Assembly (NCBI GenBank): GCA_041694835.1
Contig: JBGFRZ010000052.1
Coordinates: 1-47,423 of the forward strand
DNA: 47,423 bases
From: Ignavibacteria bacterium
GTDB taxonomy: Bacteria; Elusimicrobiota; Endomicrobiia; PHAN01
Direction of reading: 5' to 3'
Made by a program: the position numbers. This document shows, piece by piece, positions 42,001 through 45,000 of this stretch; the first letter of the stretch is position 1, and each line of letters begins with the position of its first letter.

Positions 42001-45000
42001 CGTCGAAACTTTTCGGTTCGACTCCTTTGAAATCCCTTATTCGGGGCATGGCGATGTTTATCAGCCTGTCAAAAAACTCGTACATCCTGTCCCGACGCAA
42101 AGTAACTTTCAGCCCTATTGGCATACCCTCTCTGATTTTGAAGTTCGATATCGATTCCTTCGCCCTTCGCACATGGGGTTTCTGCCCCGCGATACAAGAG
42201 AGCTCTGATGCGGCGATGTCCATCACCTTTATGTTTTCTTTTGCTTCGCCAACACCTATGTTTATCACTATTTTTTTGAGCCGAGGAACTTCGTACACAT
42301 TTGAATAACCGAATTTATCTATCATCGCCGGTATGATTTTGTCTTTATATATTTGTTTCAATCTCGGTGTATAATCGGTCCTTTTCATTTATCTTACCTC
42401 TATCAAAGTATTACTTCTGCGCAATTCTTGCAAATCCTGACTTTTTTCCCGTCTGAAAGTTTATCGAACTTTATGCGAGACGGACGGCTGCACTTCGGAC
42501 ATACAACTACCAACTTTGATAATTGAATGGGCCTTTCAAGGTCGACGATTCCACCCGGTTCTTTCTGCGTTGGTTTTTTGTGTTTTTTCGCTATATTTAT
42601 TTTGGAAACAATGGCAGTCAGTTTATCGGGAAACACTTTTAAAACTTCGCCGGTTTTTCCCTTGTCGTCACCGGATATGACGAACACCTTGTCTTTTTTC
42701 TTTAATGTCAGCATCTATTCGCTCCACGATTTCTGTTTGAAAGATATTCCCTTCTTTCTTCCAAAAATGTTAATTGTGATGACAATAGGTCATATTCAAT
42801 TTTACCAGATTTTTTGTCGACATCTTGTAATGTTATGAGATTATTATATGTTTTAAGTTTTTCAATAGATTTGTTGACAAAATATTTATTTATATCGCAG
42901 CCGATAAATTTTCTATTGTAGGCAATAGACAATTCAAGCATTGTTCCCGAACCGAGAAATGGTTCAAAGACGGTATCTCCATCATCGGTTACAGCCAACA
43001 ACAATCTTTTTACTATTTTGCTCGGGAAAGTTGCTGTATGACCGGATTTTGGTTCAGGAGATGCGAGCCAAACCTGATTATCTAATCTCAATTTACCACT
43101 TTGACCAATTACCATAAATGCCCTTGAATTAAATTTATATTTCCCTTTCTTTGTGAAATGCAGTATGTACTCGGCACTTTGTCTGACTCTATCTTTAACA
43201 TTTTCTGGCATTGGATTTGGTTTCTCCCATATTATCTGCTGTCTCCAAATATATCCTTTATCCACCAATCCAATTGCAATCCTGTACGGTATGCCACATA
43301 GCGATTTATTTTTAATTATATCGTGCCGCGCTGTTACCGAACTTGTATTTCCCTGCCCCCTTGAATCCAGCCCGTGTCGACGATATGATACATCTTTATT
43401 GTGTTCCCAATGATTATGATGTGCCCTTGAAACACCGCTCCCCATATAACTGTCTTGAATGACGACGAAAAGTGAACCGTCATCTTTCATAATTTCCAAA
43501 AGTTTTGCAAATAACTTTACATTTTTATTGATGTAATCTTCTAAACTCTCAACACCAAATTCTCTTCCGTCGTCGGTAAAACTCCGTTTGCCCCAATAAG
43601 TGGGACTCGTAATAACTGCTTGAATTATATTTTGGGGCAACTCTTGAATGCACTCAAAAACATCCGAACAATACAACTTTATTTTTTTATCAGAATATAT
43701 CAAAGACATTTTCCCACCATTAAATTACCGATGTCCTGATTGTTTGCTTGTATAACGGTATGTTTCTCGGGATATGCTAAAGCGCACTTAATACAATCGC
43801 TTTTATTACAAACATTGCATATTTTATTTTTCTCTGCATTGATATATACAGATAAAACCTGCCAATTATCCAAATCATCTTTTCCACCTTTTGAGATAGG
43901 AACCCGGTGGTCATATGTTGGAATCACTAATGACTTGCAAAAATAATGAACATCTTTTAATCCGCGATTTAAGACAATGCTCGTAATGTTACATCTCCCT
44001 TTAAAATTGTTAAATATTTGAACTTGTTGTTTGGCGGTTAAACCTCTGCGATATTCAGGTATTGATAAAGCAATAAATCGAGAAGTGTCTATATGACCGT
44101 AATACTTAAAAAGTTTTTCAATGTCCAATTTCAAATTCATTACCCTTTTTTCGTCTCTTTTCTCAAGTAAAAAATTTCCAAAGCCATTACCGAGCCTCAA
44201 ATCAGAATGTGCCCTATTAGGGTCATTTAGAATCCCGTCTAATCGATGAATATTGATAAAATTTGGATACGCTTTTAAAAGTTCTTTCAGCACAGTAAAA
44301 GCTCTCTTTATTTTCAACTGAAACTTTAATACCTTGTGGTTATACTCTATTTCAATCTGCTTTTTCTTTTTGCTCAGTATTTTATAACTATAATTCTTCA
44401 TAATAACTTTGGTCATAGCACGTACCATCAATTAACAAAGCATCAAACACTTCACACAACTTCAGGGGCGAGGGATATTATTTTTAAATAATTTTTCTCT
44501 CTAAGCTCTCTTGCCACCGGGCCGAATATTCTTGTTCCCTTAGGTTCGCCGTTGTTATCGATGACGACAGCAGCGTTGTCGTCGAATTTCACATATGTGC
44601 CGTCGGCTCTTCTTTTTTCCTTCTTTGTCCTGACAATAACCGCTTTTACGACCTCACCTTTTTTTATGGCCGCGAAAGGGGTGGCTATCTGGACTGAAGC
44701 GACTATGATATCCCCAAGAGAGGCGTATCTTTTTTTAGAGCCGCCAAGCACTCTAAAACATCTGATTATTCTGGCCCCCGAGTTATCCGCGACTTTCAGC
44801 AAACTTCTTTCCTGTATCATATTTTCTCCGGCGAAATCCTACCGGCGGTACTCTGTATCATCACGTTTTGGATTGCAACGTATTTTTCACTTCGACAATA
44901 TTCCACCTCTTTAATTTCGAAAGTGGGCGCGTTTCCTCGATTTTCACAGAATCTCCGACTTTACTCCGGTTTTTTTCGTCGTGGGCGTATAATTTAGTTT

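Follow-up and report, generated by a model that had tools for sequence, protein, structure and literature searches.

A type II restriction-modification (R-M) system, as predicted from gene content, lies between the ribosomal protein genes rplN and rplX of genome G000 (1.9 Mb, 97% complete, contamination 0.38%). The window, meaning the whole stretch of 47,423 nucleotides that was analysed, holds at this junction of contig C56 a 1,737-bp insert with a GC content of 0.343 and two co-directional open reading frames (ORFs). We consider it likely that the insert is a bare, promoterless cassette behaving like the cargo of a minimal mobile element (MME), and that the three-step account given below would describe how such cassettes arrive, spread and persist. 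The finding is real and is largely covered by known mechanisms.

The R-M insert between rplN and rplX

All features of the region lie on the reverse strand. The upstream host gene rplN (uL14; 44452..44820; PF00238, E 6e-53) is followed by a 50-bp AT-rich spacer without a clear SD sequence (44402..44451), a type II restriction endonuclease (REase)-like gene with an N-terminal winged helix and a C-terminal HNH part (43700..44401; PADLOC REase_II PDLC03431, E 2.7e-19), a beta-class N4-C/N6-A DNA methyltransferase (MTase) gene (42708..43709; PF01555, E 1.4e-39; PADLOC MTase_II, E 5e-66) and the downstream host gene rplX (uL24; 42403..42714; PF17136, E 9e-22). The MTase gene overlaps both the REase gene (10 bp) and rplX (7 bp). 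Read from 44416, the REase ORF leaves 35 bp to rplN, and read from the ATG shared with its homologues (44401) it leaves 50 bp; 44416 and 44428 are the other possible starts upstream of 44401. The gaps of 35 and -7 bp given in the survey's finding were reproduced from the window coordinates. The insert has a GC3 of 0.31, compared to 0.47-0.52 in rplN, rplE and secY. Within the last MTase codons, a GGAG (42722..42725) stands 7 nt ahead of the rplX start, and the MTase stop spans that start; the sequence and the homologue tails mark it as the probable ribosome-binding site of rplX. Since the MTase tail is unlike those of its homologues, the GGAG stretch appears to be host leader. The cassette would have entered right after rplN and run into the native rplX leader, so that rplX translation was kept.

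Promoter-like sites in the insert were not above chance (12, compared to 9.2 +/- 2.8 in shuffles), and there were 0 terminators. A repeat search revealed no terminal repeats at the insert, and no direct repeat >30 bp was found flanking the R-M unit; a long repeat of this kind (333 bp) is present only at thiC-thrB. Neither an integrase with a tRNA target nor terminal inverted repeats were found at the unit, and the ORF lists contained no mobility gene (integrase, transposase) nearby.

The Pfam HNH match of the window REase is weak, but PADLOC REase_II recognises it at E 2.7e-19. A search with this protein gave 57 matches including itself, some named from archaea, and the HNH and zinc residues H170, N184, N193, C200 and C203 (numbered from 44416) were invariant across the 57 sequences. 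The predicted structure (pLDDT 88) has winged-helix and HNH parts, and fold matches to wHTH and HNH proteins were obtained at Z 6-7.4, none decisive. No PDB sequence match, no Foldseek match at E<=0.001 and no Z above 7.4 was available for naming the enzyme. In the MTase, the SPTY motif IV precedes the FxGxG motif I, which is the beta-class order. The type II prediction thus concerns separate, adjacent MTase and REase genes with intact catalytic motifs (SPTY and FxGxG; H170/N184/N193).

The same pair was also found in L069, L070 and G099, there at unrelated junctions, and is carried by 3 of 401 genomes of the phylum (probably Elusimicrobiota), counting G000 (L070 and G107 are one locus and were counted once). 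DNA identity between the window pair and these homologous pairs is 73-74% and extends from the REase ATG (44401) into the MTase tail; as homology is limited to this span, the unit is the two bare genes. The homologous REase of G099 is broken by an IS-like sequence.

We also assessed the junction in other genomes. The survey had reported rplN and rplX as contiguous without a cassette in relatives, and this now extends to 66/66 other informative genomes or contigs. The genes are adjacent in 29/29 relatives, in 27/27 informative metagenome loci (30 fetched) and in 17 of 19 further stretches (17/17 informative; 10 were new genomes), the two excluded being one cut at a contig edge and one with rearranged order. 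No MTase was found in these 19 S10-spc stretches, and no second filled rplN-rplX allele among the relatives, metagenome loci and further stretches. No relatives closer than family level were found: the metagenome rplX scan reached <=64% identity, and the rplX search of 401 genomes added no same-genus genome. At L311 (G088:C66) the order is rpsQ-rplV-rplX, with rplN absent and repeat-rich spacers, which represents a rearrangement or misassembly.

Ten R-M pairs and the re-use of operon junctions

Profile searches of G000 returned 10 PF01555 matches, one D12 MTase that passed the cut-off and nothing for PF00145 (cytosine-5 MTase). Searches for EcoRI-type and Eco57I MTases gave nothing over the cut-off; the MT-A70 search was equally blank, but so was its control, which makes that blank uninformative. 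The genome carries ten type II-like pairs, a type III mod/res system and one MTase without a clear partner. The pairs are located at rplN-rplX, thiC (two), tkt-ade (split over C27/C87), ade-deoB, upstream of ilvE, gyrB-gyrA, argC-argJ (whose flanks are adjacent in 9/17 informative loci of relatives) and on C84 (two). The survey's count of ten stands, as do its gaps at gyrB/gyrA (17 and 2 bp) and ade/deoB (-4 and 9 bp); its GC range of 29-35% was slightly too narrow, the per-gene GC being 0.28-0.37. It had also left five partners without a firm REase family, whereas 8/10 match REase models firmly (HpyAIV, HinP1I, Tsp45I, BsaWI, NgoFVII-like and PADLOC profiles). The C84:75.7k partner is frameshifted, and the C75 partner has no firm REase match; its Atlas matches were unnamed clusters (0.92-0.94), the REase families at 0.81-0.82 being no more than a lead. 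Palindrome avoidance at the expected sites was weak (GCGC 0.80; GANTC 0.86). CTAG (0.18) and GATC (0.21) are strongly under-represented in G000, and a Dsr1-like SIR2 defence system of two adjacent ORFs (335 and 985 aa; GC 0.30) was observed at L054 (G000:C45:1214-5175).

All pairs (10/10) are co-directional with their flanks. The survey had dismissed co-direction as uninformative, and 91% of neighbouring ORF pairs genome-wide are indeed co-directional (1125/1238; 85-91% in all). The null for a random insert, however, is 50%, so the ten of ten show selection on orientation, whether because read-through expression is favoured or because antisense interference is disfavoured. MTases standing first in their cassettes (L001, L002, L009, L010, L150, L224 and L263) often have a lysine-rich N-terminal leader ending (L/I)-K/R-E...Y, which is absent from a 72%-identical homologue standing second (L223). 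Several MTase tails resemble what we take to be QLxLF clamp-binding motifs; our literature search found no report of a QLxLF-like motif in MTase tails.

G000 shares its HinP1I-like pair at ade-deoB with G009 (another family) and G101 (another class). A different pair fills this junction in G088, and an MTase start that is cut was seen there in G084. The junction is empty in G001, G002, G093, G099 and G103, and filled and empty alleles occur within one genus. Whichever gene follows ade, its ATG overlaps the ade stop with the same offset (-4) in the alleles compared (5 filled, 2 empty). The cassette is flanked by ATGAAA; because ATGAAA is a very common gene start, this 6-7-bp repeat could be chance. 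No ATGAAA-type repeat was found at rplN-rplX. Between G000 and G088, identity is mostly 78-91% in ade (69% in one 150-nt bin), 74% in the first MTase bin and ~45% thereafter, with similarity running ~170 nt into the MTase, up to the DPPF motif. Read from this alignment, the swap point lies inside the MTase 5' end. Movement of domains between R-M genes has reportedly been described previously.

The host genes beside this cassette were also compared. In ade (78.6 vs 69.5-74.4%) and deoB (75 vs 68-70%), G000 resembles G009 more than it does its own family, a gap of which part may be rate, given the long branch of G001/G002. The same inversion was seen in argJ (55 vs 50%) without a shared cassette, and seven controls (punA, gyrB, gyrA, rplN, rplX, thiC and thrB) showed none. 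Fourfold-site identity is near saturation, with ade/deoB mildly higher (39-41% vs 25-35%). In the deoB tree, G009 groups with G000's family (100/99), while the ribosomal and gyrA control trees place it with f2/f3. A sister relationship of G000 and G009 in deoB was not recovered, the best tree keeping G000 with G001/G002 (support 62/34). Across L263-L269, the adenine deaminase of G000 shares 78-87% identity with the enzyme of another class and 69% with that of its own family, and deoB (L047:3846-5174) has an insertion of ~40-50 residues absent in relatives.

Among genomes with both genes seen, the gyrB-gyrA junction is filled in 5 (G000, G009, G088, G099 and, with non-R-M cargo, G084) and empty in 4 (G001, G008, G014 and G103); in G002 and G101, cargo lies upstream of gyrA and gyrB is off the contig. 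Since G009 and G099 have the first MTase in common (79%), followed by different genes, the fills are not all independent. A binomial calculation for this re-use was set aside, as it disregarded the relatedness of fills and its fill rate of 1.5% was a guess. A large insertion, probably an intein, brings the gyrA products of L151 (G002:C244) and L333 (G101:C99) to ~1,200 aa. At the aminotransferase-ABC junction, 9 f19 genomes with the aminotransferase comprised 2 with the window pair, 5 empty, 1 with a D12 MTase and an EcoRI-like REase, and 1 with another cut ORF.

At thiC-thrB, the order is thiC, M1, R1, a thrB stub, DUF433 with a short broken partner, and then a second thrB stub fused to a copy of the thiC 3' end, followed by M2, R2 and thrB. 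The duplicate described in the survey was recovered (333 bp, 98.5%; C64:40705-41037 vs C75:726-1058; thrB stubs at C75:199 and 689). Its C64-C75 join, which had rested on an overlap and a reading frame, is further supported, because the R1 fragments on the two contigs match consecutive parts (1-232 and 237-286) of one PADLOC profile. The thrB-stub/thiC-copy junction is internal to C75 and unlike either single allele. Adjacency of thiC and thrB in relatives was found in 14/18 informative loci. Of the differences in the thiC copy, 4/5 are synonymous, compared to 0.21 expected (p ~0.008 under equal rates; larger with transition bias), which suggests that the copy came from a working donor allele, probably that of a close strain carrying M2-R2. 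Its left side would have been joined by an illegitimate step, for which homology-facilitated illegitimate recombination is the general background. In L236 (G020:C13), a pair 54% identical to the G000 thiC M1/R1 lies just downstream of thrB rather than upstream, and the thrB at L046:2836-3774 has a short tandem-repeat stretch near its start.

The phenomenon is lineage-wide and not special to G000, whose ten PF01555 matches are not extreme (up to 35 elsewhere in the class). Further cassette junctions in relatives are mlaE-mlaF and psd-pssA (G002), acsC-acsV (G009), and hisI-trpE, polA-coaE and kdsB-kdsA (G012). In pstS-pstC-pstA-pstB-pstB of L247 (G027:C19:17500-35000), each of four consecutive junctions holds a separate R-M cassette; no MTase was found in the pst operon in the stretches fetched from 5 congeners of G027 (two cut by contig ends). 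The same junctions also hold other defence-like cargo, namely a HicA pair, DUF433, HEPN-MNT, AbiEii and YhcG (L047:5225-5690; L046:344-670; L330; L331). The survey's wording had implied a preference for core operons, which was not borne out: in stretches around the best-scoring listed MTases of relatives, 11/30 R-M gaps had flanking genes that adjoin each other in G000, compared to a baseline of 51/101 for directly adjacent pairs, revealing no enrichment. For gaps with other genes the count was 3/23. Cassettes neither avoid operons nor prefer conserved junctions.

Proposed arrival and spread, and alternative explanations

We infer that in a first step a rare illegitimate or homology-facilitated event would seat two genes at a junction, often at the downstream start codon. 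The cassette would be oriented with transcription, the host operon promoter would drive both genes, and translational coupling would keep the downstream essential gene expressed. In a second step, the cassette of a filled junction would spread, swap or stack through recombination in the flanking host genes, with the conserved 5' part of a resident MTase sometimes serving as one arm; the corresponding pattern is seen at ade-deoB, gyrB-gyrA, aminotransferase-ABC and thiC-thrB, and is presumed for rplN-rplX. In a third step, post-segregational killing and phage defence would retain the cassette, and essential flanks would purge sloppy deletions. Post-segregational killing and defence by R-M systems are established R-M biology. 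The survey's proposal of homologous recombination is supported for the spread at ade-deoB, gyrB-gyrA and thiC-thrB, but does not account for the first arrival at a junction, which needs an illegitimate step. The rplN-rplX data are explained by the first step alone. The genome contains comEC and dprA.

Independent random illegitimate insertions, filtered by survival so that the inserts merely look operon-internal and without spread through the flanks, would agree with the 91% co-directional neighbours, the absence of junction enrichment and the singleton at rplN-rplX, and probably describe the first-arrival step correctly. As a complete explanation we find them improbable: different cassettes re-use the same junctions, the same cassette and junction recur in two classes, identity breaks inside an MTase, the thiC copy resembles a donor, and four consecutive pst junctions are filled in G027 and none in 5 congeners.

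Dispersed repeats occupy 456 intervals of G000 (78.5 kb). They reach ~65 copies, are mosaic in structure and contain many ACGCAGAT-like units; in the window they lie at 1248-1472, 4067-4589, 26620-26848, 31447-31625 and 40883-41032. This abundance, the IS-like sequence in the homologous REase of G099, and the description of R-M units that carry inverted repeats or integrases targeting tRNAs (PMC2853133) would favour mobilisation of the cassettes in trans by an integrase, a transposase or dispersed repeats. Such mobilisation is nonetheless very unlikely, as 10/11 cassette sites have no dispersed repeat within 400 bp, the window insert has no terminal repeats and the homology of cassette copies stops at the coding ends. 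The repeat-mediated form was rejected on the lack of terminal repeats at the insert and of dispersed repeats nearby.

The sites in ribosomal, gyrase and biosynthetic operons, together with 2/10 partners without a firm intact REase match, could indicate domesticated regulation, in which the MTases are kept for growth- or replication-linked methylation and the partners are not active restriction enzymes. We hold this to be highly doubtful, since occupancy is patchy and interchangeable within a genus, GC3 is low, the HNH catalytic residues are intact, and non-R-M cargo (HEPN-MNT, YhcG, AbiEii, HicA) occupies the same junctions. An assembly or binning chimera in this metagenome-assembled genome, suggested by several cassettes at contig ends and by the C64-C75 stack crossing a contig break, is scarcely credible, given that the insert lies away from the contig ends and joins its neighbours in clean reading frames, contamination is 0.38%, the same architecture recurs in many independent genomes and the thrB-stub/thiC-copy junction lies inside C75.

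Significance and comparison with known systems

Beyond the promoterless cassette of the window, we tentatively raise a wider possibility: lineages of the phylum may share a pool of promoterless R-M cassettes across families and classes, with operon junctions as re-usable slots, exchange through host genes and the MTase 5' end, and the capacity to fill every junction (4/4 in one pst operon), even in the spc ribosomal operon. If true, essential operons would be safe harbours and an alternative to defence islands, and cassettes would drag host genes such as ade and deoB between classes. The account offers a testable route for the movement of R-M systems without mobility genes. Phylogenies built on housekeeping genes next to such slots (ade, deoB) can mislead. 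A nuclease gene is tolerated even between rplN and rplX, and one may ask how restriction stays low on a highly transcribed mRNA. Since several partners match no family, breaks in conserved-operon synteny may be a cheap way to new defence genes.

A literature search, with most subscription journals outside its scope, revealed no published case of R-M genes between rplN and rplX or inside the spc operon, and the available parts of an Omnitrophota preprint and of PMC3874152 contain no description of such cassettes. The available text on the MMEs of Neisseria describes whole-gene cassettes that differ at one conserved-gene junction, without a mobility gene (PMC3082526), and R-M genes in MMEpheST (PMC1797815). 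MMEs, of which MMEpheST and MMErfaDclpA are examples, resemble the present cassettes in placing whole genes, type II R-M systems among them, between otherwise adjacent conserved genes without a mobility gene, and MME-like differences in cassette at one junction were seen here at ade-deoB, gyrB-gyrA, aminotransferase-ABC and thiC-thrB. The definition of MMEs, however, compares strains within a species or genus, whereas the slots here are common to families and classes; moreover, rplN-rplX has one filled allele, and swap points may fall inside the MTase gene.

Furuta et al. (PMC2853133) describe R-M insertion with repeats of tens to ~400 bp, often spanning start or stop codons, and with no other mobile element. 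One of their insertions lies in an operon-like structure, and replacement of R-M genes by others is also described. The size of this long target duplication fits the 333-bp thiC copy, and no duplication is present at rplN-rplX. Unlike the target copy of that work, the thiC copy resembles a second working allele, and the stack holds two different systems. In Ca. Endomicrobium trichonymphae Rs-D17, probably of the same phylum and class as G000, the accessible sections of Zheng et al. (PMC4760077) report numerous type II R-M systems unaccompanied by other mobile elements, and insertions between contiguous genes at mutS-mutL and, with a duplicated flank, at aroF-aroA. Those R-M genes are described there as mostly pseudogenes in an endosymbiont and are read as drivers of rearrangement, whereas most of the present ones are intact and allele exchange is visible; the main text, in those sections, gives no ribosomal-operon site. 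New here are the ribosomal site, the sharing of slots across classes, exchange inside the MTase and the saturation of one pst operon.
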